Source: an uncultured Solibacteraceae bacterium (GTDB taxonomy: Bacteria > Acidobacteriota > Vicinamibacteria > Vicinamibacterales > SCN-69-37). Taken from it: a stretch of DNA of 64,000 bases. The stretch spans positions 1,232 through 65,231 of the forward strand of contig CAZNMF010000049.1 of NCBI GenBank assembly GCA_964573795.1, read 5' to 3'. Below, one piece after another: positions 6,628 through 52,458 of this stretch (position 1 is its first letter; every line of letters begins with the position of its first letter). The notes below the pieces were generated by a model. That model was not told where the DNA came from. It did not search any database and saw nothing but the letters and a program-made list of their open reading frames with translations. Made by a program: the position numbers and the translations under genes.

Positions 6628-7239
6628 GTGTCGCCCTTCCCCGCTTTGATCCGCGCGCGCGTCGATGCATCCGGGCTGTCAGTCGCGGACGATCTCGTCG
6701 CGAGGCTCGGTGCGTATCTCGACGTGCTGGCGCGCTGGAATCGGCGGATCAATCTCACGTCGTTCGATCTCGACGCGCCTACTGACGCGGCGATCGATCG
6801 TCTGATCGTCGAGCCGCTGCGCGCCGCGGCGTTCGTCCGTGAGTCCGATCGCGTCGCTCTCGACATCGGATCCGGCGGCGGGTCGCCTGCGATTCCGATC
6901 GCGGTCGCGTGCCCGTGGCTGCGCATGACGCTCGTCGAGATCCGCGCGCGAAAGGCGGCGTTTCTGCGCGAAGCCGTGCGCACGGTTGATCTCGCCGGCG
7001 CGCGCGTCGAAGCCGTGGCGTTCCACCGGCTGGCTGCGGACCATTCACTTGCCAAGCAAGTGGATGTCGTCACGATGCGCGCGGTGCGTGCGGATGGGGA
7101 GATCTGGAAGGCGATCGAAGTGTTGCTTGCGCCTGGCGGGCGCGTGCTGTGGTTCGGCGGCGATCGAGGGGCGATTGAAGGTACATCGTTAGCGCCGGTC
7201 GCCAGTAATGACGTTGTCCTCGTGCTCGCACGTCGCTGA
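6628..7239 (+). CDS. rsmG: 16S rRNA (guanine527-N7)-methyltransferase RsmG (GidB)
   Basis: 203 aa following mnmG. Contains ...WNRRINLTS... and the SAM motif DIGSGGGSPAIPIA. GTG start. Confidence 0.9.
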   Translation: MSPFPALIRARVDASGLSVADDLVARLGAYLDVLARWNRRINLTSFDLDAPTDAAIDRLIVEPLRAAAFVRESDRVALDIGSGGGSPAIPIAVACPWLRMTLVEIRARKAAFLREAVRTVDLAGARVEAVAFHRLAADHSLAKQVDVVTMRAVRADGEIWKAIEVLLAPGGRVLWFGGDRGAIEGTSLAPVASNDVVLVLARR

Positions 7240-24454: not shown

Positions 24455-24811
24455 TCAAAAGGCCAATTTGTTGGCCGCGTCAGCGGCATCAACGTCGACC
24501 CACTCGACTTCAGAGACGATGGCGCGCTCGCAGTACTCCCAAAACAATCGTCCCAGCACTTCGTGCTTGGGGTCGTTCAGGTAGCCGACAAGTCCTTCGG
24601 CGCCATCAAATTCGAGCACGGCTGCGTATTTGTAGGTCGTGTCACCAAGCGACCTGCCATATCCAGGATCGATCTCGACTCTGCGTCCAACCGAGAGCCG
24701 CCTGACCGTCTCGATAGACCTGCACGTCTCAATCACGGATTGGGCAAATGCCAATTTCTGAGACTGATCCAGTCCGGCCTTTGGCTCGAAGAGCACGATG
24801 TGCGCAATCAT
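24455..24811 (-). CDS. Dabb (stress-responsive alpha/beta-barrel) domain protein
   Basis: 118 aa with MIAHIVLFEPKAG... and ...YKYAAVLEFDGAEGLVGYLNDPKH..., the typical Dabb pattern. Last gene of the EBP operon. Confidence 0.7.
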   Translation of the reverse strand: MIAHIVLFEPKAGLDQSQKLAFAQSVIETCRSIETVRRLSVGRRVEIDPGYGRSLGDTTYKYAAVLEFDGAEGLVGYLNDPKHEVLGRLFWEYCERAIVSEVEWVDVDAADAANKLAF

Positions 24812-25209
24812 CGGGATCGCTTGGGGCCGCGCGACTGCGGCGGGCGACGGGGAGGCCGGCGCTGGCCGTCACCAGCGTCACTGGTCTTCGCGGAGATCAG
24901 GCGGCGTTTGAAGCGCGCGCGCTTCTCGTCGCGCGTGAGTTTGTACTTGGCTCGTGGATCGACATGAGCGCCGCCTGGCCGCCATTCGCGATCCCGCGCC
25001 GCGCTCGCCCGTCGTCGTGCCGCGAACGCGTCGTCGGCTGCCTGCGGCGAGTCCCAGAATCGCCCGCGATCGAACCACTTGAGTGCCACGTTCGGCTGCG
25101 TGCGCTGGAGCTGACGGAGCGTCGGCAGCAGATCCTCGGCCCGTCTCGCGCGAAAAGCCGTCGGCTGCGCGCCCGCGACGATCACCCAGCAGCAGAATCG
25201 CTTCGTCAT
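24808..25209 (-). CDS. Hypothetical 133-aa protein with strongly basic C-terminal tail (family not recognised)
   Basis: ORF MTKRFCCWVIVAGAQPTAFRARRAEDLLPTLRQLQRTQPNVALKWFDRGRFWDSPQAA..., then an Arg/Lys/Pro-rich tail. The ATG lies 3 nt after the EBP stop, and there is an ATGA overlap with the Dabb gene. Confidence 0.55.
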   Translation of the reverse strand: MTKRFCCWVIVAGAQPTAFRARRAEDLLPTLRQLQRTQPNVALKWFDRGRFWDSPQAADDAFAARRRASAARDREWRPGGAHVDPRAKYKLTRDEKRARFKRRLISAKTSDAGDGQRRPPRRPPQSRGPKRSR

Positions 25210-25212
25210 CGC

Positions 25213-26598
<1,386 letters not shown>

Positions 26599-26778
26599 GA
26601 AAGCGACGGTATCTTGACACGAAGCGCGGGCCGAATCGAGGGTGAGGCCTGCGGCGGAGTCGCCGCCAGGAGGCAGCCAGTTAAAGTCACCGTCGAACGT
26701 CGCCGATATTGTGGGTGAACGCGCCCTCGGGCGCGCGGCCGAGTGCACAACCTCCCTCGGCCGCTGGATGGGTGAGCG

Positions 26779-27000
26779 ATGCTGCTAGAACGAAAGACCG
26801 TATCGATTCCGCGGGCGTGCGAGCTGGTCGGTGTCAGCCGCCGCACCATTTACAACTGGATCGCCGGGGGCAAGGTGCAGTACGTCCGGACAGCCGGCGG
26901 TTCCGTCCGTATTTTCGAGGACACGCTCTGGCGTAATCCGGACGCCTCGAACGACGAGCAGGGAGCGGCCTGGACGCAGCGACTCAGTCGTGGCGCCTGA
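26779..27000 (+). CDS. Small excisionase/MerR-superfamily HTH DNA-binding protein
   Basis: 73 aa with ...SIPRACELVGVSRRTIYNWIAGGKVQYVRTAGGSVRIF..., the pattern of HTH_17 / excisionase-family domains. Confidence 0.7.
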   Translation: MLLERKTVSIPRACELVGVSRRTIYNWIAGGKVQYVRTAGGSVRIFEDTLWRNPDASNDEQGAAWTQRLSRGA

Positions 27001-27235
27001 CCCATCGACGGCACCGCCATCGCCTCTCGATCCCGCTGCGCTGTCGCAGGTCTTTCACCGGCTGAACAACCAGCTCGGTGTGATCCTCGCGAACGCCGAG
27101 CTGCTCGAAGCTCGTCTGACCGAAGACACCCAGCGCGCCAGGGCCAGCCAAGTGGTCTCCGGCGCGCTGGAAGCGATCTCGGCGATTCAGGATCTCCGAC
27201 GGATCGTCGGCCTGAACAACCCGGCCAACCGCTAG
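26990..27235 (+). CDS. Stand-alone DHp-like (HisKA helix-hairpin only) small protein, about 81 aa
   Basis: C-terminal part of track ORF 26831..27235. GTG at 26990 overlaps the HTH gene's end by 11 nt. The sequence ...QVFHRLNNQLGVILANAELLEARL...RARASQVVSGALEAISAIQDLRRI... resembles the H-box helix (HDFNNLLTVILGxAELL type) plus a second helix of histidine-kinase dimerisation domains. No ATPase domain follows. High GC3 from the H-box onward. Start codon uncertain. Confidence 0.5.
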   Translation: MAPDPSTAPPSPLDPAALSQVFHRLNNQLGVILANAELLEARLTEDTQRARASQVVSGALEAISAIQDLRRIVGLNNPANR

Positions 27236-27261
27236 CGCCCATGTCGGCGCGATGACAACCC

Positions 27262-27275
27262 TGACAGCCCTGTCA
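27262..27275. promoter_or_regulatory. Perfect inverted repeat TGACAG-CC-CTGTCA (candidate enhancer/UAS)
   Basis: 6-2-6 palindrome, with an extra direct TGACA at 27253-27257. Centred about 150 bp upstream of the -24/-12 promoter at 27420-27435. Confidence 0.4.
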
Positions 27276-27419
27276 ATCGGCCGACACCAAACGGCCGGGA
27301 TGTTCGCGCCGCTTCACGGCAATTCACAGTCCATCAGCAGACGCTAACTGACGCTCGGAAAGCGATTTAGGGGCACTTGATTCCTCGCGTGGCTTCCGGC
27401 GCCTCACCCGATTTTCACA

Positions 27420-27435
27420 TGGCATCGCTGTTGCC
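27420..27435 (+). promoter_or_regulatory. Sigma-54 (-24/-12) type promoter TGGCAT-N5-TTGCC
   Basis: The sequence tGGcatcgctgttGCc has exact GG-N10-GC spacing and matches TGGCAC-N5-TTGCW at all but one position. It lies 40 nt upstream of the sigma-factor ATG and is followed by the RBS GGAGGAGG (27462-27469). Confidence 0.65.
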
Positions 27436-27474
27436 TTGGTGACTGGTCCCGGCCGTGTGCCGGAGGAGGTCTCA

Positions 27475-28290
27475 ATGCAACGCGTGCCCTTGGCGGCATC
27501 TGAACAGCGGCGGGTCGAAGCGGGTCTCCCGTTCGTCGAGTCGCTGGCCCGACGCATGGCGTCGACCATGCCGCACTCGATCGACCTGGGCGATCTCGTG
27601 CAGGACGGCGTGCTCGGGCTGATCGACGCCGCGCACCGCTTCGACGAGGCGCGCGGGATCAAGTTCGAGACGTTCGCCGAGCGCCGCGTCCGCGGGGCGA
27701 TGATCGACGCGCTGCGCCGGGACGCGTGGCCGCGCGGCGTCCGCCGCGTCCGCCGCGAGCTCGAGGCCGCGCGCGAGCAGTTGCGTCGCGAGCTCGGCGC
27801 CGAGCCGACGATTGCCGACCTCGCGCGCCGCGTCGGCGCCGACGAGGCGCAGTTGGAGCGCACGATCGTCCGCATCAGCACCATCGAGTCCACCTCACCG
27901 CTGGCCAATCTCGAGACGATGGACAGCTCGACGCTGCCGCCGGTGCTCGTGCCGAGCGAGCCCGTGTCGCCGGAACGGCTGTTCGAGCAGAGTCAGACGC
28001 GCGAGCGCGTCCGCGCCGCGCTGGTGCAGCTTCCCCCGCGCGAGCGGCGGATCCTGTCGCTCTACTATTTCGGCGATGCGACGATGAAGCAGATCGGCCA
28101 GGAGATCGGCGTCAACGAATCGCGCGTCTCGCAGCTGCACGCGCGCGCCATTCAGCGCCTGCGCCGCCTGCTGACCGCGCCGGCGCGCACCGAGCCCGTC
28201 AAGGGGCCGCGCCTGGTCGCGAAGACGACGCGGCAGAAGTATCCGGTCGCGCGCCCGCGTCCGGCCGTGCTGCCGAGCCGCGCCGCGTAG
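27475..28290 (+). CDS. FliA/WhiG-family (sigma-28-like) RNA polymerase sigma factor
   Basis: Inner ATG after a strong RBS. Region 2 is DLVQDGVLGLIDAAHRFDEARGIKFETFAERRVRGAMIDALRRDAWPRGVRR (the D-W-x-P-R hallmark of FliA-type sigmas). Region 4 is ...RERRILSLYYFGDATMKQIGQEIGVNESRVSQLHARAIQRLR... Confidence 0.85.
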   Translation: MQRVPLAASEQRRVEAGLPFVESLARRMASTMPHSIDLGDLVQDGVLGLIDAAHRFDEARGIKFETFAERRVRGAMIDALRRDAWPRGVRRVRRELEAAREQLRRELGAEPTIADLARRVGADEAQLERTIVRISTIESTSPLANLETMDSSTLPPVLVPSEPVSPERLFEQSQTRERVRAALVQLPPRERRILSLYYFGDATMKQIGQEIGVNESRVSQLHARAIQRLRRLLTAPARTEPVKGPRLVAKTTRQKYPVARPRPAVLPSRAA

Positions 28291-28351: not shown

Positions 28352-29905
28352 CTATCGCAGCGTTTCGCGCGCGACGCGCACCAGGTCGCGAAGACGGAAC
28401 GGCTTGGGCACCCAGCGGCAGCCGCTCTCTTCGAGGAAGCGCTCCGCCTCCGTGCCCGCGACGTCACCGGTCACGAAAATCAGCCGGCGCGCGATGTGCG
28501 GCATCTTGGCCGAGACTTCGCGGAAGAACGCCATGCCGTCGACCTTCGGCATCTTCAAGTCGCAGATGATTACGTCGTAGTGCGTCTCGCGCACTTTCTT
28601 CAGCGCCGCTTCGCCGTTCTCCGCGCGATCCGTCCGGAACCCTTCATCGGCCAGCGCCGCCGCCACCGCGTCGCCGAGCGCGGGCTCGTCCTCCACGACC
28701 AGCGCGCGCGTGCCCTTTGGCACGTCCGGCAGCGGCTGCGCGGGCGCCGGCTCCTGCGTGCGCAGTGACGCGCCGCTCACCGGCAGCTCGAGCAGAAACG
28801 ACGCGCCGCCTTCCGGCAGCGACGACACGCTGATGCGGCCACCGTGCTCCTGCGCGATCGCGTACGCGACGGTCAGCCCGAGTCCTGTGCCCTTGCCGAC
28901 GGGCTTCGTCGTGAAGAACGGCTCGAAGACCTTGTCCTGCACCTGATCCGGCACGCCAGGACCGTCGTCGGCGACTTCGAGGACGACGGCGTCGCTCTCG
29001 GCGTCGTGCCAGGAGCGCAACGTGAGCGTGCCGCGGCCGTGTGCCTCGAGCATCGCCTGCTCGGCGTTGATCACCAGATTGAGGACGATCTGCTGGATCT
29101 GGTGCGGATCGACGAAGACCGGCGGCAGCGACGAGGCGAGCGAGTCGGCGATGGCGATCTGGCTGCCACGCTGGTCGTAGGCGCGCAAGGCGAGCGTCTC
29201 GCGCACGACCTGATTGATGTCGACGGTCATGCGCGTCGTGTGACGCTTGCGCGCGAACGTCTGCAGGTTGCGGACGATGCGCGCGGCGCGCTCGGCGGCG
29301 TTGTGGATGGCGTCGAGATCGCGCCGCGTGACGTCGTCGACGCGCTGGCCCGTGAGCCGCTCGGCGCACGCCAGGATCGTGGCCAGCGGAGTGTTCAGCT
29401 CGTGCGCCACGCCCGACATCGTCTGGCCGAGGGAGGCCATCTTCTCGGATTGCGACAACTGATGGGCGAGCTCGCGGCCCTGATCCTGCAGCTTCTTGCG
29501 ATCCGTCACGTCGCGCATGATCGCTTCGACGCGCAGCGTCGCGCCGGATGCGAGCGTCTCGGCGCGCGCGGTGACCTCGATCCACATCGCCGTGCCGTCG
29601 AGGCGCCGCACGCGCACGAGCGTGTCGCGGGCCGCGCCGTCGCGCGCGAGCTGACGCAGGAGCTCGGCGCGCGCCAGCTCGTCGACGAAGCGATTGGGAT
29701 CGAACGGGCGCACCTCGGCGGCCGGGGCATCGTCGGGCCAGCCGAACATGACGCGCAGGTGGCGATTGGCCGCGAGCGTCGCCGTCTCCGCCGGTCCGAT
29801 CAGGCCGATGTAGACGCCCTCGGGAAGGTTGTCGAAGAAGTGGGCGAACGCGTCGAGCGAGAGCGCCGACGAATCGCGGCGGCGAGCGGGGGAACGCGGC
29901 GTCAC
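28352..29905 (-). CDS. Soluble hybrid sensor histidine kinase (PAS-HisKA-HATPase-REC)
   Basis: PAS-like segment (...GTAMWIEVTARAE...IMRDVTDRKK...), H-box SGVAHELNTPLATI, N and G boxes (LVINAEQAM, DDGPGV, GKGTGLGL), and C-terminal REC (ALVVEDEP...DVIICDLKMPKVDG). No TM segment. The start is set at a GTG 2 nt after the upstream stop; the track ORF's N-terminal extension overlaps the PCYCGC gene and is rejected. Confidence 0.85.
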   Translation of the reverse strand: MTPRSPARRRDSSALSLDAFAHFFDNLPEGVYIGLIGPAETATLAANRHLRVMFGWPDDAPAAEVRPFDPNRFVDELARAELLRQLARDGAARDTLVRVRRLDGTAMWIEVTARAETLASGATLRVEAIMRDVTDRKKLQDQGRELAHQLSQSEKMASLGQTMSGVAHELNTPLATILACAERLTGQRVDDVTRRDLDAIHNAAERAARIVRNLQTFARKRHTTRMTVDINQVVRETLALRAYDQRGSQIAIADSLASSLPPVFVDPHQIQQIVLNLVINAEQAMLEAHGRGTLTLRSWHDAESDAVVLEVADDGPGVPDQVQDKVFEPFFTTKPVGKGTGLGLTVAYAIAQEHGGRISVSSLPEGGASFLLELPVSGASLRTQEPAPAQPLPDVPKGTRALVVEDEPALGDAVAAALADEGFRTDRAENGEAALKKVRETHYDVIICDLKMPKVDGMAFFREVSAKMPHIARRLIFVTGDVAGTEAERFLEESGCRWVPKPFRLRDLVRVARETLR

Positions 29906-29907
29906 GC

Positions 29908-30426
29908 TCAGCCGCCGGCGGGCGGTTGCGGCGTCGGCGTGTGACCCATGTGGCGCCCGCCGAAGCGCTGTTCGACCGCAGCGCGGATTTGCGCCACCGA
30001 CGCGCCCGCGTCGTGCATCTGCATCGCCATCTGCGCGACGTCCACGCACACTTCGCAGCCGATGCCGTGCTCGTCCCATTCGACGACATGGCCCTGGCTG
30101 TCTCGACGCTTGACGTAGCAATCGTGGTTCGCCTGATGCCCGCCGCGCTCGCAGCCGCAGAAGCACGGCACGTAGCGCAGGACTTCCGGATGCCGCGCGG
30201 CGAACGCGTACGCGCTCTTCACGACGGGCACCGGACGGACGGCGTACGACAAGCTCGACGGCAGCGGCGGCAAGTCGCTCGCGACGATGTTGAAGCCGGA
30301 AGACGCGCCGCTCGCCGGCGCGCTGGAGGCGCTCGACGACGAGGACGCGCCCGGCGAGCACGAGCCCGCCGCGATCGCAGCGGCCAGGACGGCCGCGGCC
30401 GTCGACGCGCGAGTCGATGTGCGCAC
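29908..30426 (-). CDS. PCYCGC-motif (lipo)protein
   Basis: 172 aa with a GTG start. Signal/lipobox-like N-terminus ...AAAIAAGSC, a Ser-rich linker, then ...VLRYVPCFCGCERGGHQANHDCY...CEVCVDVA... matching the PCYCGC-motif domain pattern. Confidence 0.75.
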   Translation of the reverse strand: MRTSTRASTAAAVLAAAIAAGSCSPGASSSSSASSAPASGASSGFNIVASDLPPLPSSLSYAVRPVPVVKSAYAFAARHPEVLRYVPCFCGCERGGHQANHDCYVKRRDSQGHVVEWDEHGIGCEVCVDVAQMAMQMHDAGASVAQIRAAVEQRFGGRHMGHTPTPQPPAGG

Positions 30427-30462
30427 GCGGGAATCTTATCATCCGCTGTAGACTGGCCGGAC

Positions 30463-31416
30463 ATGGCGCGACTCCCCAGAATCAGCGAGATCACCGGCAC
30501 ATCGGCTGGCACCGGCTTCTTCCTGTGCGCGAAAAAGGAGCGGCGGACGGGGCGATCCGGCGCGTTCCTCGTGCTCGTGCTGCAGGACGCCAGCGGCAGC
30601 ATCGACGCGAAGATCTTTCAGGACGTCGACATCGCTCAGGCGCAGTTCGAGACGGGTGAGTTCGTCGCGGTCCAGGCCAAGGGCAATCTCTTCAACCAGC
30701 GGCTCGAGCTCATCGTCGACAAGATCCGGCGCGTGATTCCCGAGGACGAGAAGAACGGGTTCCGGCCGGAGGACTGCATTCCGTGCTCGCCGCGGCCCCT
30801 CGACGAGATGTGGGCCGAGCTGACCTCGCGCGTGGCGAGCGTCGAGTCGCCGGCGATCCGCGATCTGCTGGAGCGGTTCGTGGCGCGCTACGGCGATCGG
30901 CTGCGCGTCTGGCCCGCCGCGCGACAGGTGCATCATGCGTATCGCAGCGGCCTGCTCGAGCACGTGCTGAAAATCATGGACGTGGCCGTGTTCATGGCCG
31001 ACACGTACGGCCTGCGGCGCGATCTCGTGATCGCCGGCGCGCTGCTGCACGACATCGGCAAGCTCCAGGAGCTGACGTACGACGTCGCGATCGACTACTC
31101 GGTCGAAGGCAACCTCGTCGGCCACATCGTGATCGGCGTCGGGATGCTGAAGGAGATCCTGCGGGAGACGCCGGAATTTCCTGAAGAGACGGCGCTCGAG
31201 ATCGAGCACCTGATCCTGTCGCACCACGGCTCGAAGGATCTCGGATCGCCGGTGCCGCCGATGACGCCGGAAGCCTTCGTGCTTGCCGCGGCCGACGACA
31301 TCGACGCGAAGATGCACCAGATTCGCCGGCACCTCGCCGAGGATGGATCAGACGGCCGGTTCACGACCTATCACCGCTATCTCGAGCGCGTGCTGCTGAA
31401 GCCCGCGAAGTCCTGA
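30463..31416 (+). CDS. YhaM-like 3'-5' exoribonuclease (OB-fold + HD domain)
   Basis: Inner start MARLPRISEI. N-terminal OB-fold (...FLVLVLQDASGSIDAKIF...) and HD domain (HHAYRSGLLEHVLK...GALLHDIGK...ILSHHG). Confidence 0.8.
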   Translation: MARLPRISEITGTSAGTGFFLCAKKERRTGRSGAFLVLVLQDASGSIDAKIFQDVDIAQAQFETGEFVAVQAKGNLFNQRLELIVDKIRRVIPEDEKNGFRPEDCIPCSPRPLDEMWAELTSRVASVESPAIRDLLERFVARYGDRLRVWPAARQVHHAYRSGLLEHVLKIMDVAVFMADTYGLRRDLVIAGALLHDIGKLQELTYDVAIDYSVEGNLVGHIVIGVGMLKEILRETPEFPEETALEIEHLILSHHGSKDLGSPVPPMTPEAFVLAAADDIDAKMHQIRRHLAEDGSDGRFTTYHRYLERVLLKPAKS

Positions 31417-31899
31417 TCAGGACGCCGCGGCCGTTTCGCTGCTGCTCGCGCTCGTCTTCGGACCGAGCGCAAACGTCATCGTGCCGTCGCAGACGACGAC
31501 GCCGTTGACGCGCGCCGCTCCGCTCAGGATGCCCATCCGGCTGCGCAGACGCTTGACGATGGCCTCGATCTCGACGGTATCGCCGGGATGGACTGGACGC
31601 CGGTAGCGGACGCGCTCGATGCCCATGAAGAGCGGAATCCGTTCCCGGTTTTCGGGCTTGGCCAGAATGAGGATGGCGCCCACCTGCGCGATCGCTTCCG
31701 TCAGGATCGTCGGCGGCAGCACTGCGCGATCGCCGCCGACGCCGTGCCAGAGATAGCGATCGTTCTGGGACACGTTCTTGATCCCGATGATGCGGCGATC
31801 GGCTTCCAACTCCGTCACGCGATCGACGAGCAGGAACGGATAGCGATGGGGAAGAATGCGTTCGATCGCGGCGTAGTCGAGCGGAAGCTGTAAACTCAT
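31417..31899 (-). CDS. fabZ: 3-hydroxyacyl-ACP dehydratase FabZ
   Basis: Contains ...ILPHRYPFLLVDRV...IGIKNVS...GHF-equivalent region and PGDTV. 160 aa. Confidence 0.93.
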   Translation of the reverse strand: MSLQLPLDYAAIERILPHRYPFLLVDRVTELEADRRIIGIKNVSQNDRYLWHGVGGDRAVLPPTILTEAIAQVGAILILAKPENRERIPLFMGIERVRYRRPVHPGDTVEIEAIVKRLRSRMGILSGAARVNGVVVCDGTMTFALGPKTSASSSETAAAS

Positions 31900-31943
31900 T
31901 TTTCTGCCAGTATAATTCCAGTTGCCGTCCTCCCCGTCCGTTC

Positions 31944-33725
31944 ATGCAACCGCCATCCGTTCAACCGCAGCCGACGACCCTGTCCGGGAACGAGCGTGAC
32001 ATCCTGCTGACGCTGTTCGATCTCGGCCGGAAGATCGCCTCGGTCATCGAGCTCGACGAGCTGCTGCCACGCATTCCTGAGCTGGTCGGCCGGTTGATTC
32101 CATTCGACGCGTTCGCGGTCTATCTCGTCAGCGAAAAGCGGCAGATGTTCAAGCTCGGCTACGCCATCGGGTATCCGGACGACGCCGCGCGCGCCGAGCT
32201 CAGCCTGTCGGACGGGGTGCTCGGACGCGTGGTGACGACGCAGCAGCCGCTCGTCATCGGCGACGTCACCGCCGACCCGAGTTACGTCAGCGTCGTGCCA
32301 GGCATGCACGCGACGCTCGCGGTGCCGCTGATCCACAAGTCGAAGGCGATCGGCGTCCTGAACGTGCTCAGCCGCGAGCGCGATCGCTATTCGGAGCGCG
32401 ACGTCGCCATCCTGCGCCAGTTCGCCGCGCACGTTGCCACCGCGCTCGTCAACGCGCGCCTGTTTGCGCAGGAACGTCACGACGCCGAAGCGTTCGAGAC
32501 GCTGGCGGAGGTCGGCCGCGAGATGGCCGGCCTGCTCGATCTCGATCGGCTGCTCGCGCGCATCGCGCAGCTCGGACGGCGGCTCGTCGACTATCGGACG
32601 TTCGGCATCCTGCTCCTGAACGAGGCGACCGGCGAGCTCGAGATCAAGGCCGCCGTGCAGTACGGCGAACAGGTCGTCCTGCCGAAGGTACCGGTCGGCG
32701 AAGGCCTCGTCGGGTACGCGGCCAAGTATCGCGAGCCGGTCTACGCGCCCGACGTCTCGAAGGATCCGCGCTATATCCAGGTGCTCGAGGACGTGCGCTC
32801 CGAGCTCGTCGTGCCGATGCTCGTCAAGGATCGCTGCGTCGGCGTGTTCGATCTCGAAAGCCCCGACCTCGACGCGTTCTCCAAGCGCGACATCGAGATC
32901 CTCAAGCTGCTGGCGAGCCAGGCGGCCGTGGCGATCGAGAACGCGCGGCTCTATGCCGAGCTGTCCGCCAACGAGGCGCGGCTCGAGCGGGAGCTGCGCT
33001 TCGCGCAGCGCGTGCAGACGGCGCTGCTGCCGACGCAATTGCCGAAAAAGGTCCGCGGCGTGGATCTGGCCGTCTCGTTCGCGCCGGCGCGCGAGCTCGG
33101 CGGCGACTTCCACGACCTGCTCGTCCCCGAGTCCAACACGCTCATCGTGGCGGTGGGCGACGTGTCGGGCAAGGGCGTGCCCGCCGCGCTGTATTCCGTG
33201 TTCGCCGGCGAGCTGGTGCGCGGCCGCACGTTCCGCCGCCGCTATCTGCCGGAGCGATCGTCGCCAGCCAAAGTGCTGATGTCGATCAACACGATCCTCC
33301 ACGAACGACAGTTGGAGGAGTACTACTGCACGCTGTGCTACGCGTTCTTCGATTTGAAACGGCGGACCGTGACGCTCGCGAATTCGGGCGTGCCGTATCC
33401 GATCCGCGTCACCCATGGCGTCGTCAGCCAGATCGAGCTGCCGGGCGTGCCGTTGGGATCGTTCTTCGGTGTGAGCTACGACGAGGTCACGCTGCCGCTG
33501 GAGATCGGCGACGTGTTCTTCTTCGGATCCGACGGCGTGTTCGAGGCGATGAACGCGGCAAGTGAGGAGTTCTCGTCCGCGCGCGTCATGGAGATCGTCC
33601 GCGACGCCCGCACGCAGTCCGCCGCCGAGATCGTCGATCGCGTCTCGCAGGCGATCGAAAGCCATCGCGCCGGCTTTCCTTCCAACGACGACACGACGAT
33701 GATCGCGCTCCGGATCACGGAGTAA
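31944..33725 (+). CDS. GAF-GAF-PP2C (SpoIIE/RsbU-type) serine phosphatase
   Basis: Two GAF-like modules (...GVLGRVVTTQQPLVIGDV...AVPL...; ...GLVGYAAKYREPVYAPDV...VVPM...), followed by ...RELGGDFHDLL...VAVGDVSGKGVPAAL...GSDGVFEA...NDDTTMIALRI. Confidence 0.85.
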   Translation: MQPPSVQPQPTTLSGNERDILLTLFDLGRKIASVIELDELLPRIPELVGRLIPFDAFAVYLVSEKRQMFKLGYAIGYPDDAARAELSLSDGVLGRVVTTQQPLVIGDVTADPSYVSVVPGMHATLAVPLIHKSKAIGVLNVLSRERDRYSERDVAILRQFAAHVATALVNARLFAQERHDAEAFETLAEVGREMAGLLDLDRLLARIAQLGRRLVDYRTFGILLLNEATGELEIKAAVQYGEQVVLPKVPVGEGLVGYAAKYREPVYAPDVSKDPRYIQVLEDVRSELVVPMLVKDRCVGVFDLESPDLDAFSKRDIEILKLLASQAAVAIENARLYAELSANEARLERELRFAQRVQTALLPTQLPKKVRGVDLAVSFAPARELGGDFHDLLVPESNTLIVAVGDVSGKGVPAALYSVFAGELVRGRTFRRRYLPERSSPAKVLMSINTILHERQLEEYYCTLCYAFFDLKRRTVTLANSGVPYPIRVTHGVVSQIELPGVPLGSFFGVSYDEVTLPLEIGDVFFFGSDGVFEAMNAASEEFSSARVMEIVRDARTQSAAEIVDRVSQAIESHRAGFPSNDDTTMIALRITE

Positions 33726-50870: not shown

Positions 50871-51827
50871 ATGAACGCGTTGTATGCACAGTTGTGTCGC
50901 CATGACGCCCAGGCGTGGCGGAAGGCGATCGACACGCTCGCCGCAGAAATCCATCCCATCGACCGCAACGCGACGCGCATCTGGTTCGCGTTCTATCCGC
51001 TGGATCTGTTCCTCGCGCTCGAGGCGTCCGAGGATCCGGCGGCGGCTGCGCGCACGCTCGGCCTGATGGGGAACTGGCGCCTGTCGGAGCAGATCGACAC
51101 GTCGCACCGTTTCCTGTACGCGCATCGCTACTGGCCGCAGGTCAAGTCGGCCGTGCAGCACGCGCCGGCGGCGCTGCCCGACGATCTCGCGGCGCTCGTC
51201 AGCGCGGTGGCGGAGTCGGCCGCGCGGACCGCGCGCGTCGATCGCGAGTTCCTGCTCGGCATGGGCGCCGTCGCGCTGATGACGCTCCGGCAGGCCGGTC
51301 CGGAGGCGTTCGCGGCCGCCCCGGGAAAGATTCATCTGTCCGAGCGCGCCCGCGCGATGTCGCCGCACCAGGTGATGACGCAGCGTGCGCGCGACGACTG
51401 GCAGGGCCTCTTCGGTTTCCTCCGCGGCCTGAAGAAGCGGTGGACGATCAGATTCGACGAAGGCGATCCGGAGGCGGCGTTCGCGCTGATCGACGGCCAG
51501 GAGATTGCGACCGCGGCGCAGACCGACAAGCGCGACTATCACTCGCGCGATCCGCGCTGCACGCCGAACGAAGGGCCGATTCCCGTCGAGTGCCGCGCGG
51601 CGTCGTGCGGCACGTGCTGGGTGGGCGTCATCGCCGGCGCCGAGAAGCTCTCGCCCGTCGTCGATCGCGACGAGCGCCGGCGGATGAAGGTATTCGGCTA
51701 TCTCGATTCGCCGGAAGAGCGTCCGCTGATTCGCCTCGCGTGCCAGGCGCGCGCGCACGGCGCGGTGACGATCGTCATTCCGCCGTGGAACGGCGTCTTC
51801 GCTAGTTGCTGCCGTCGGGAGGCCTGA
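50871..51827 (+). CDS. Two-domain protein: unrecognised about 200-aa N-terminal domain + C-terminal plant-type 2Fe-2S ferredoxin-like domain
   Basis: C-terminal ...ECRAASCGTCWVGV... (C-x4-C-x2-C) plus ...RLACQA..., spaced as in 2Fe-2S ferredoxins. The N-terminal part is not recognised. Confidence 0.6.
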   Translation: MNALYAQLCRHDAQAWRKAIDTLAAEIHPIDRNATRIWFAFYPLDLFLALEASEDPAAAARTLGLMGNWRLSEQIDTSHRFLYAHRYWPQVKSAVQHAPAALPDDLAALVSAVAESAARTARVDREFLLGMGAVALMTLRQAGPEAFAAAPGKIHLSERARAMSPHQVMTQRARDDWQGLFGFLRGLKKRWTIRFDEGDPEAAFALIDGQEIATAAQTDKRDYHSRDPRCTPNEGPIPVECRAASCGTCWVGVIAGAEKLSPVVDRDERRRMKVFGYLDSPEERPLIRLACQARAHGAVTIVIPPWNGVFASCCRREA

Positions 51828-52395
51828 GCGACGCGAGCTCGCGATCGATACGATCGCGAATTTCCTGAATCTCGTGCTCGCTCCTGGCGTTGCGCAGATC
51901 CTCGATCGCCTTCTTGATCAGCGACTGGCCCAGCCAGTTGGTGAACGCGAACTGCAGCGTCTCGATCGCGGTGATGCCGCCGGAGCTGTTCATCTCCTTC
52001 GGGGTCACCATGCTCAGGAACTCCGAGTGCGTCATCGGATTGCCGCGGCGCGTCGGGCCGTTGATGAAGTCGTAGCCGTTCATGAAGTCCCGGAAGTCGG
52101 TCTGCTTCGCGAGAATCTTCACGTAGTACCGCAACTGGCTGTCGTCGAGCTTGAGCGTCGGCGAGGAGTCGAGCGCCCGCTTGATGCGCGTGAGATCGGC
52201 CATCGTGACGGTCGGCGGGGGCGTAGCCGGCGTCGCCCGTGGAGCCGCCGGAGGCTCGGCCTGGACGGGAGGCGGCTGTCCCGATGCGGCCGGATTCTGC
52301 TCACGGGCCGAAGCGGGCGCGGTCAGGAGCGTCGCGGCCACGGCCACCGCCGTGACCAGGGCCGTGCCGCGCGCGTCAGTCTTCATCACGATCAT
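51802..52395 (-). CDS. Secreted hypothetical protein (family not recognised)
   Basis: Signal peptide MKTDARGTALVTAVAVAATLLTAPASA, a Pro/Ala-rich linker, then a structured C-terminal half. The start is one of the Met codons at 52395 or 52386. The 3' end overlaps the convergent gene by 26 nt. Confidence 0.5.
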   Translation of the reverse strand: MIVMKTDARGTALVTAVAVAATLLTAPASAREQNPAASGQPPPVQAEPPAAPRATPATPPPTVTMADLTRIKRALDSSPTLKLDDSQLRYYVKILAKQTDFRDFMNGYDFINGPTRRGNPMTHSEFLSMVTPKEMNSSGGITAIETLQFAFTNWLGQSLIKKAIEDLRNARSEHEIQEIRDRIDRELASLRPPDGSN

Positions 52396-52458
52396 AGGAC
52401 GCCTTTTCGAGGCACGCAGTCGACCGAGCAAGGGATGTGCCACGCCGTTCAGCGCCGA

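Follow-up and report, generated by a model that had tools for sequence, protein, structure and literature searches.

A stand-alone DHp-like helical hairpin with a conserved histidine, encoded in a five-gene regulatory cassette of Vicinamibacteria

Can the helical hairpin that carries the phospho-accepting histidine of a sensor kinase serve as a protein in its own right, and if so, what would it do? This question is raised by two small overlapping genes in a 64,000-nucleotide stretch of DNA from an uncultured Solibacteraceae bacterium (placed by GTDB in the Vicinamibacterales; assembly GCA_964573795.1, contig CAZNMF010000049.1, positions 1,232 to 65,231 of the forward strand). We refer to this whole stretch as the window and number positions from its first letter. 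The first gene of the pair encodes a helix-turn-helix (HTH) DNA-binding protein, and the second encodes a protein that resembles the DHp domain, the dimerization and phospho-acceptor module of histidine kinases, with no catalytic domain. The histidine carriers of phosphorelays are of two kinds, monomeric HPt bundles and kinase-derived proteins such as Spo0B and ChpT in which a dead catalytic domain is present. The two genes are as follows.

26779 to 27000, + strand: 73-aa MerR-like winged-helix DNA-binding protein of the excisionase (Xis/BldC) type, assigned from Pfam, TIGR01764 and its AlphaFold2 (AF2) fold
26990 to 27235, + strand: 81-aa stand-alone DHp-like hairpin protein, assigned from HisKA similarity, an AF2 model, conservation and substitution pattern

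The reality of the second gene had to be settled before its function could be considered. Its open reading frame (ORF) starts at a GTG at 26990 and has its last base at 27235, overlapping the HTH ORF by exactly 11 nt (26990 to 27000). These coordinates agree with the first-pass annotation of this DNA, made from the letters and their translations, which had described a 73-aa HTH gene followed with an 11-nt overlap by an ORF of about 81 aa; the core peptide it quoted is present. Only two in-frame start codons, GTG 26831 and GTG 26990, lie ahead of the codon of the putative phospho-acceptor histidine (27056 to 27058). We took GTG 26990 as the start because the composition of 26831 to 26989 in this frame is that of non-coding DNA (GC by codon position 0.55/0.79/0.60), with values of 0.74/0.40/0.81 in the core of the hairpin ORF. 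Comparison of a 57-codon core between the window and 86 related loci gave 1387, 730 and 2698 differences at codon positions 1, 2 and 3, respectively, in the + frame. Since the differences fall mainly on third codon positions, the hairpin ORF can be regarded as a protein-coding gene under purifying selection. An antisense ORF (26850 to 27242) would have its second codon position as its most variable base at the same 86 loci, and is thus not coding.

A sequencing frameshift can be excluded as the origin of the hairpin ORF because all three possible frames of the HTH gene relative to the hairpin gene are represented (at 38, 29 and 14 loci) and because the spacing also varies, from a gap of 28 nt at some loci to overlaps of 1–11 nt at others. 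This answers a concern of the first-pass annotation, that a corrected sequence might fuse the hairpin to the HTH protein. In nearly all loci the HTH stop codon lies 53–117 nt ahead of the hairpin histidine codon, which indicates translational coupling. The stretch 26975 to 27003 encodes two conserved protein ends from the same letters, QRLSRGA-stop at the close of the HTH protein in one frame and VAPD at the beginning of the hairpin protein in another; in other genomes, longer calls of the gene run GSAVAPE/D across the overlap. In-frame fusions of the two ORFs are rare (P0137, P0160, P0239 and L045, the last at 7001–7210), and the three that were looked up (P0137, P0160 and P0239) are all singleton clusters, two of them on contigs of ~445 kb. 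Such fusions may be real or may be indel errors and, as these three are singletons, they are weak evidence of a physical association. Judged from its pattern of substitution and its arrangement across loci, the hairpin ORF is a genuine gene and neither a decayed fragment nor the product of a frameshift.

What kind of protein does this gene encode? A variable Pro-rich tail (residues 1–14) precedes two helices (residues 15–42 and 46–75), and the first helix holds the H-box FHRLNNQLGVILANAELL, with the histidine at residue 23 (His23). The AF2 model, built from a 40-sequence alignment, is a confident antiparallel two-helix hairpin (pLDDT 86). A broad hydrophobic stripe, read from the sequence, runs along both helices and is compatible with packing into a four-helix bundle. 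The protein matched Pfam HisKA (PF00512) with an E-value of 0.009 and 16.5 bits, under the gathering score of 26.9 bits, over positions 6–58 of the 66 in the profile. When 84 diverse family members were scanned singly, HisKA was the most frequent weak Pfam match (26/84, best E 8e-4), and besides it only low-complexity noise recurred. The clearest signal came from the locus itself: hhalign aligned the family profile with a DHp profile of orthologues of the adjacent hybrid kinase, histidine on histidine, with a probability of 94.3% and P = 1e-7, and a hidden Markov model search of all ORFs in the window returned the DHp domain of this kinase, over both helices, as the only non-self match. The H-boxes of the two proteins, HRLNNQLGVILANAELL in the hairpin and HELN(T/N)PLATILACAERL in the kinase, are identical at 10 of 17 positions.

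Structure-based searches were less discriminating. Foldseek found no significant match to the hairpin model in the PDB, as expected because a bare hairpin is too generic a shape; the DHp domains of ERS1, GacS/RetS and CpxA were among its top matches, none of them significant. When solved structures were searched by sequence, neither the protein alone nor the profile of its family drew more than chance coiled-coil matches. A match to the NCBIfam family XAC0095 (residues 10–34, 17 bits against a cut-off of 34 bits) was treated as chance. No match to HPt (PF01627) was found in the hairpin protein or in the family scan at E-values up to 10, and the protein has two helices only. Nor does an ATP-binding domain follow the hairpin: the ORF closes at 27235, with a promoter region and then a sigma factor gene downstream, and the protein terminates ~6–10 residues past helix 2, without a C-terminal alpha/beta pseudo-kinase domain.

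Compared with the DHp domains of kinases (HisKA, PF00512), including that of the adjacent CckA/EspC-like kinase and those with NtrB-type H-boxes, the hairpin has the same two-helix fold and an Asn four residues after the histidine (H+4). Its histidine lies at the matching spot of an H-x-L-N-N-x-L-x-x-I-L-A-x-A-E-x-L box, and the pattern of helix 2 is HisKA-consensus-like. It differs in being free-standing, at about 70–85 aa, with neither sensor nor ATP-binding domain; in having Arg rather than Glu or Asp at H+1 and Gln rather than Pro at H+5; and in the position of the histidine, just two turns from the start of helix 1. We conclude that the protein is a divergent free-standing offshoot of the DHp superfamily, lying under Pfam's own threshold. 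The weak HisKA match, the profile alignment with the adjacent kinase and the AF2 hairpin together bear out the first-pass view of a DHp-type hairpin that keeps its histidine, and the conserved non-coding promoter spacer at 27236 to 27474 bears out its statement that no ATP-binding domain lies downstream. That annotation had also named profile similarity to DHp domains and conservation of the histidine among homologs as checks on its proposal, and both came out in its favor.

Conservation in the family is concentrated on the H-box, with helix 2 and both tails far more variable than the H-box of helix 1. Among 385 family sequences, the histidine is kept in 381, and it is surrounded by nearly invariant residues: Asn at H+3 (377), Asn at H+4 (382), Gln at H+5 (371), Gly at H+7 (377) and Glu at H+14 (383). 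Position H+1 is Arg in 347 sequences, Gln in 15, Lys in 9 and Thr in 7, with no Asp or Glu among the residues listed. In HisKA kinases, Glu or Asp at H+1 is the residue associated with kinase activity, and Thr or Asn at H+4 the one associated with phosphatase activity. If these generally known roles apply here, the hairpin lacks the residue associated with autophosphorylation and retains the histidine and the H+4 Asn that go with phosphoryl transfer or phosphatase chemistry. Because it has no catalytic domain and its H+1 residue is not acidic, the hairpin protein would have no autokinase activity. Position H+12, the one dimorphic specificity position, is Asn or His; the sequences with His form essentially a single clade, which led us to drop an analysis of its covariation with residues of the receiver.

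The hairpin family is large, and its members are consistently short. A search of 5.8 billion proteins found 2,473 relatives of the hairpin protein in the window and, with a member of a second subfamily as the query, at least 7,994 relatives (clusters at 90% identity). The 240 relatives listed from both searches are all 61–101 aa; few were named by their source, and those almost all as ‘hypothetical’. A profile search of 1.84 billion cluster representatives gave 301 clusters at E ≤ 1e-3. The best 150 of these range from 53 to 182 aa and none extends into a kinase catalytic domain, the longer ones being mis-called starts, read-throughs or HTH fusions. In a scan of one genome per species the hairpin was found in 520 genomes. 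Nearly all of the 80 genomes listed were labelled Vicinamibacterales, Vicinamibacteria or Acidobacteriota, and a few short contigs with other labels probably reflect errors of binning. The window itself has 93–99% protein identity to a Vicinamibacterales metagenome-assembled genome (L005). Literature searches returned nothing relevant on stand-alone or DHp-only proteins or on this gene cassette in Vicinamibacteria, in line with the first-pass statement that DHp-only proteins of about 80 aa are not known to have been characterized as a class.

The partner protein encoded just upstream is a small DNA-binding domain, and here the earlier call of an excisionase-type HTH held: the protein scores above the cut-offs for both Pfam HTH_17 (PF12728; 35.1 bits, cut-off 27) and TIGR01764 ‘excise’ (37.2 bits, cut-off 28.8). 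Its AF2 model is a beta-alpha-alpha-beta-beta winged helix. The best fold matches were the Xis protein of mycobacteriophage Pukovnik (E 1.3e-3) and Streptomyces BldC (rmsd 1.2 Å over 45 residues), followed by MerR N-terminal domains. The likeness to BldC is structural only, as the match to the BldC family (NF033787) reached 22.7 bits against a cut-off of 77. Searches for the HTH protein gave 3,687 clusters of relatives, with lengths of 70–118 aa among the 120 listed. It has in common with BldC and phage Xis the winged-helix fold, the size and membership in the excisionase HTH family, but differs in being chromosomal, with no phage or integrase link, and in its conserved C-terminal tail, whose coding sequence runs into the next gene.

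Which partners might such a hairpin serve? In the window the gene pair belongs to a cassette of five genes, in which an NtrC-type activator gene on the − strand is followed by the HTH, hairpin and FliA/WhiG-type sigma genes on the + strand and then by a hybrid kinase gene on the − strand. The three further genes are as follows.

25213 to 26598, − strand: NtrC-type sigma-54 enhancer-binding response regulator of 461 aa (receiver, AAA+ sigma-54 activator and Fis-type HTH domains), divergent from the gene pair, assigned from Pfam
27475 to 28290, + strand: FliA/WhiG-family sigma factor (group 3, sigma-28-like) of 271 aa, assigned from Pfam Sigma70_r2, r3 and r4
28352 to 29905, − strand: cytoplasmic hybrid histidine kinase with the architecture PAS-HisKA-HATPase_c-REC (REC, receiver), convergent with the sigma gene, assigned from Pfam

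This order is the same at every locus long enough to show it (>80 loci). In the second subfamily a 2-hydroxyacid dehydrogenase gene stands between the activator and HTH genes and the remainder is unchanged; more generally, the HTH-hairpin-sigma trio persists where other neighbors change. The activator matched Response_reg (2.4e-23), Sigma54_activat (1.2e-72) and HTH_8 (1.6e-11), with AtoC/NtrC as the nearest NCBIfam families. Its receiver is canonical, with the DD, D, T and K residues kept, and essentially every locus with enough upstream sequence on its contig has the activator gene there, on the opposite strand. The sigma factor scored 188.3 bits against TIGR02479 FliA_WhiG, just under the cut-off of 189.6 bits. 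Its gene, with a conserved GGAGG ribosome-binding site ahead of the ATG, follows the hairpin gene at every locus long enough to show it.

The hybrid kinase is nearest to EspC/CckA-type hybrids in NCBIfam, with EspC as the best match and EspA as the third. In an alignment of 77 orthologue rows, of which 2–3 are gapped at the residue columns counted, the kinase has its histidine in 75/77 rows, Glu at H+1 in 74/77 and Asn at H+4 in 73/77, together with the Asp and Thr of the receiver in 74/77 (3 rows being gapped at the Asp) and its Lys in 73/77. These orthologues have Pro at H+5, in contrast to the Gln of the hairpin family. No HPt domain or other C-terminal extension past the receiver was found in any of the 77 rows. 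At one locus (L088, 10409–12114) the kinase was called as a 440-aa HisKA+HATPase product and an overlapping 126-aa product without a Pfam match; the latter may be the receiver, and the split is probably an assembly frameshift.

How might the cassette be expressed? Two promoters and two further conserved elements can be predicted around the gene pair.

26682 to 26708, + strand: FliA/WhiG (sigma-28)-type promoter, TAAAGTC-N13-GCCGATA, located 71 nt before the HTH start
27420 to 27434, + strand: sigma-54 (−24/−12) promoter, TGGCAT-N5-TTGC, TGGCATCGCTGTTGC, ~40 nt upstream of the start codon of the sigma gene
27252 to 27287: TGACA/TGTCA repeats (ATGACA, TGACAG-CC-CTGTCA and GACAC), conserved blocks in an alignment of 25 spacers
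26614 to 26620: TTGACAC element beside the start codon of the activator, with ATTTTGACAC conserved in a 24-locus alignment

The consensus for FliA/WhiG promoters is TAAA at −35 and GCCGATAA at −10 (PMC8325347). The site at 26682 to 26708 reads TAAA-N16-GCCGATA, in keeping with this consensus and with a spacer of about 15–16 nt. A search for TAAA-N14-17-GCCGATA returned it as the one match in the 64-kb window (0.00 expected), and all 32 strict matches of the sigma-28-type pattern in 1.05 Mb of related loci lie at the same position upstream of the HTH gene. In 81/81 loci (0.024 expected) the 120 nt ahead of the HTH gene contain the element CCGATA, and in 77/81 a −35 element of the form TA[ACT]N is in register with it. 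For sigma-54, the pattern matched at two places in the window (0.12 expected). The match at 27420 to 27434 has the TGGCAC-N5-TTGC spacing, is conserved and has an enhancer-binding-protein gene nearby; GG[CT]A[CT]-N5-TTGC was found in the hairpin-to-sigma spacer in 80/81 loci and is conserved in the alignment, starting 32–168 nt (mostly 55–100 nt) ahead of the sigma gene. Both promoters are predictions drawn from motif and conservation. Neither was noted in the first-pass annotation, nor was the fixed cassette, and the promoter ahead of the gene pair adds an anti-sigma or feedback reading that was absent from that annotation. The second exact match (52428 to 52442, − strand, TGGCACATCCCTTGC) is ~30 nt upstream of an ATG at 52395. 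The ORF behind it, of 197 aa (51802 to 52395, − strand, with an internal ATG taken as the start), has a signal-peptide-like N-terminus and no Pfam match, and may be a further sigma-54 target.

The hairpin and sigma genes are separated by a conserved non-coding spacer of ~240 nt (27236 to 27474). Within it, the TGACA/TGTCA repeats lie about 135–170 nt upstream of the sigma-54 promoter and may serve the activator as an upstream activating sequence or else be bound by the HTH protein. The TTGACAC element, possibly an operator, has the TGACA half-site in common with these repeats, and a single DNA-binding protein, the activator or the HTH protein, may recognize both. Neither a sigma-70-type promoter nor an intrinsic terminator was found in 26400 to 27600, an interval that includes the space between the hairpin and sigma genes, and a search of Rfam gave no RNA family in 26300 to 27700. 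Ahead of the HTH gene, the 5′ leader (26709 to 26778) seems to hold two GC-rich hairpins (GCGCC-CTCG-GGCGC and GCGGCCGAG...CTCGGCCGC); these were dropped, as RNAalifold gave 0 conserved pairs across 15 loci.

We propose, at a probability of roughly 40%, that the hairpin protein is a minimal dimeric phosphotransferase of the Spo0B/ChpT kind that links the receiver of the hybrid kinase to the activator within a sigma-54 to sigma-28 feedback circuit. Two hairpins would pair into a four-helix bundle that exposes His23. With no ATP-binding domain, and with Arg at the position where a kinase requires an acidic residue, the bundle would be unable to phosphorylate itself. The receiver of the neighboring hybrid kinase, a kinase with no HPt, would donate a phosphoryl group to it, and the bundle would hand this on, reversibly, to the receiver of the divergent NtrC-type activator. 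The phosphorylated activator would then fire the sigma-54 promoter at 27420 to 27434 and the FliA/WhiG-type sigma factor would be made. This sigma factor would in turn read the sigma-28-type promoter at 26682 to 26708, yielding more HTH protein, more hairpin protein and, by read-through, more sigma factor. The relay protein would thus be a working part of a feedback switch as well as one of its outputs, and the circuit would probably be bistable. The genes, their homology and conservation, the invariant histidine, the constant gene order and the two promoter motifs are observed; dimerization of the hairpin, every step of phosphotransfer, the protein that binds the TGACA repeats and any role of the HTH protein are predictions of the model.

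The proposal brings together a phospho-acceptor hairpin without autophosphorylation, a kinase that ends in a receiver without an HPt and a nearby activator that needs phosphorylation, and it is because of this combination that we favor a relay. Spo0B and ChpT carry out just this transfer in the sporulation and CckA-CtrA phosphorelays. Both Spo0B (Bacillus) and ChpT (Caulobacter) follow the logic of a kinase-derived four-helix bundle without autokinase activity, standing between the receiver downstream of a kinase and a terminal regulator, as we propose for the hairpin. ChpT is a DHp-type phosphotransferase whose partner is CckA (PMC3433190, PMC9981736), and CckA is among the closest matches of the hybrid kinase here. 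HPt domains (PF01627; for example Ypd1, LuxU and the C-terminus of ArcB) have the role we propose for the hairpin, that of a histidine relay between two receivers. They differ in being monomeric bundles of four or more helices and ~120 aa with a motif of their own, and the fold unit of the hairpin is half that size. The transcriptional part of the model resembles the sigma-54 to sigma-28 cascades of polar flagellates, where, as in Vibrio, FlrA and sigma-54 drive fliA. Here too an enhancer-binding protein and sigma-54 are predicted to drive a FliA-family sigma factor, but no flagellar genes were found in the window or in the loci inspected, and it is the HTH and hairpin genes that lie under the promoter of the second sigma factor.

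Several observations weigh against the relay. The DHp domain of the kinase could phosphorylate the activator directly. Hybrid kinases are not always relay users, and EspA and EspC of Myxococcus are not; this bears on the kinase considered here because EspC and EspA are its best and third NCBIfam matches. The hairpin gene, behind a sigma-28-type promoter and operon-like with the sigma gene, is in the classic position of an anti-sigma factor or other negative-feedback element. Spo0B and ChpT are about 190–250 aa long and both retain a C-terminal alpha/beta pseudo-ATP-binding domain, whereas the hairpin stands alone: it has a DHp-like domain with a conserved histidine and no pseudo-kinase domain, and no sequence match of the hairpin protein or of the 84 family members to the Spo0B or ChpT families was found. 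Finally, the match to HisKA is below threshold and the search of solved structures found no relative beyond chance.

Two other readings keep the hairpin within the phosphorylation chemistry of the cassette. As a feedback phosphatase or phosphate drain, it would dock on a phosphorylated receiver, that of the activator or of the kinase, and dephosphorylate it, shutting off the sigma-54 input after the sigma factor has built up. DHp domains of HisKA kinases, when isolated, can catalyze receiver dephosphorylation, and the almost universal Asn at H+4 (382/385), the loss of the kinase-specific acidic H+1 and a sigma-28-type promoter that makes the hairpin an output of the cascade would all suit such an activity; the evidence from the cassette is identical to that for the relay. 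However, the phosphatase activity of HisKA domains is generally known to tolerate loss of the histidine, which is nearly invariant here, and reversible phosphotransfer through the hybrid kinase would already provide a drain, so that the two readings overlap. We consider a dedicated phosphatase somewhat unlikely. The hairpin might instead act on the kinase by pairing with its DHp domain and blocking or redirecting autophosphorylation. In the precedent of RetS and GacS, direct association of helix bundles lets one DHp regulate another kinase, RetS differing in being a full-length hybrid kinase-like protein while the hairpin is free. In keeping with this idea, the nearest detectable relative of the hairpin is the DHp domain of the adjacent kinase, with 10/17 H-box residues identical, the nearest fold matches include RetS-GacS DHp complexes, and the sigma-28-type promoter would suit negative feedback. 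Yet an inhibitor would need a helix packing face, not an exposed histidine, Asn-Asn-Gln and Gly, which are the most conserved residues, and variability is much greater in helix 2, which would make up half of any dimer interface, than in helix 1; inhibition of the kinase appears improbable.

Other readings place the hairpin on the transcription machinery itself. Alone or with the HTH protein, it might be an anti-sigma factor or sigma modulator that binds the co-encoded sigma factor and releases it perhaps upon phosphorylation of His23. The sigma gene is the next gene downstream, and the hairpin gene follows a promoter of the type read by that sigma factor, a layout found also at flgM and in rsbV-rsbW-sigB; no terminator was found between the two genes, and the HTH-hairpin-sigma trio stays together while other neighbors differ. 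RsiG, a small antiparallel helical anti-sigma factor for WhiG (PMC8325347), provides a structural precedent. The hairpin resembles FlgM, RsiG (of the sigma-28 clade) and NepR in its size and helicity, in the placement of its gene beside a sigma gene and in its predicted transcription by the same sigma factor, but no sequence relationship to them was found and its homology points to kinases. Neither Pfam nor NCBIfam yielded a match to an anti-sigma family, FlgM and NepR included, at E-values up to 10, and the c-di-GMP motif of RsiG, E(X)3S(X)2R(X)3Q(X)3D, is present in 0/388 family members. An anti-sigma function would also leave the homology to kinase DHp domains, with histidine and H-box kept, unexplained, and the sigma gene has a promoter of its own beyond the ~240-nt spacer. 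We therefore regard this as unlikely. It is improbable, too, that the hairpin is a subunit of the HTH protein, supplying in trans the dimerization module of an Xis/BldC-like, MerR-type domain to make a two-chain transcription factor, possibly controlled by His23. The strict adjacency and translational coupling of the two genes, the occasional in-frame fusions (three clusters and one locus) and the limitation of the HTH protein to a DNA-binding domain favor such a pairing; against this, the three fusions looked up are singletons and maybe indel errors, no populated fused cluster occurs among the 120 best HTH or 150 best hairpin relatives, and a kinase-type H-box would have no explanation. A combination of these ideas, in which the hairpin is a His-phosphorylatable regulator of transcription (an anti-sigma factor, or a switchable dimerization subunit of the BldC-like HTH protein) set by phosphoryl transfer from the kinase receiver to His23, strikes us as decidedly unlikely. 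We know of no precedent for a partner switch through histidine phosphorylation of a DHp module. There is next to no chance that the hairpin is the remnant of a decayed histidine kinase or the artefact of a frameshifted HTH fusion: the family comprises thousands of clusters, with all listed relatives at 53–182 aa, and extends over 520 species genomes; third-codon-position substitutions dominate; all three relative frames occur, with gaps at some loci; and the downstream DNA is a conserved promoter region rather than degraded coding sequence. Nothing speaks for a remnant beyond the initial look of a kinase segment that lacks its catalytic part. The size and conservation of the family thus dispose of the decayed kinase fragment that had been one of the options of the first-pass annotation; its two other options, a phosphotransferase and an inhibitor of a kinase, are represented above by the relay and by the pairing with the kinase DHp domain.

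Beyond the cassette, some neighboring genes recur among the loci, within 29908 to 33725 in the window.

29908–30426, − strand: PCYCGC-motif protein, recurring in the second subfamily only
30463–31416: OB-fold plus HD protein, recurring in the first subfamily only
31417–31941, − strand: FabA-like dehydratase, recurring in both subfamilies
31791–33725: GAF-GAF-SpoIIE (PP2C) phosphatase, recurring in both subfamilies

PP2C phosphatases of the GAF-GAF-SpoIIE kind usually feed partner-switching pathways; no STAS or anti-sigma kinase gene was seen. Downstream of the activator (24455 to 25209, − strand) are genes for a 133-aa protein without a family match and for a Dabb (stress-responsive alpha/beta barrel) protein, the latter present in about half of the listed loci.

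DHp-type phosphotransferases are already known, and what is new here is a lineage-wide family of DHp-only proteins inside a defined regulatory circuit. If the hairpin is indeed a relay, then ~60 structured residues, the DHp bundle alone, would suffice for phosphotransfer, making it the smallest carrier of this kind and a natural minimal scaffold for the study and engineering of kinase-regulator specificity. Should a rival reading be correct instead, with the hairpin inhibiting the kinase, acting as an anti-sigma factor or serving the HTH protein as a subunit, the DHp fold would have been put to a new use. Nor is the family a rarity: it numbers thousands of clusters in hundreds of species throughout the Vicinamibacteria, a class of bacteria that abounds in soils. 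To our knowledge, almost no regulation has been worked out in the Acidobacteriota, and the cassette offers a compact and directly testable circuit.

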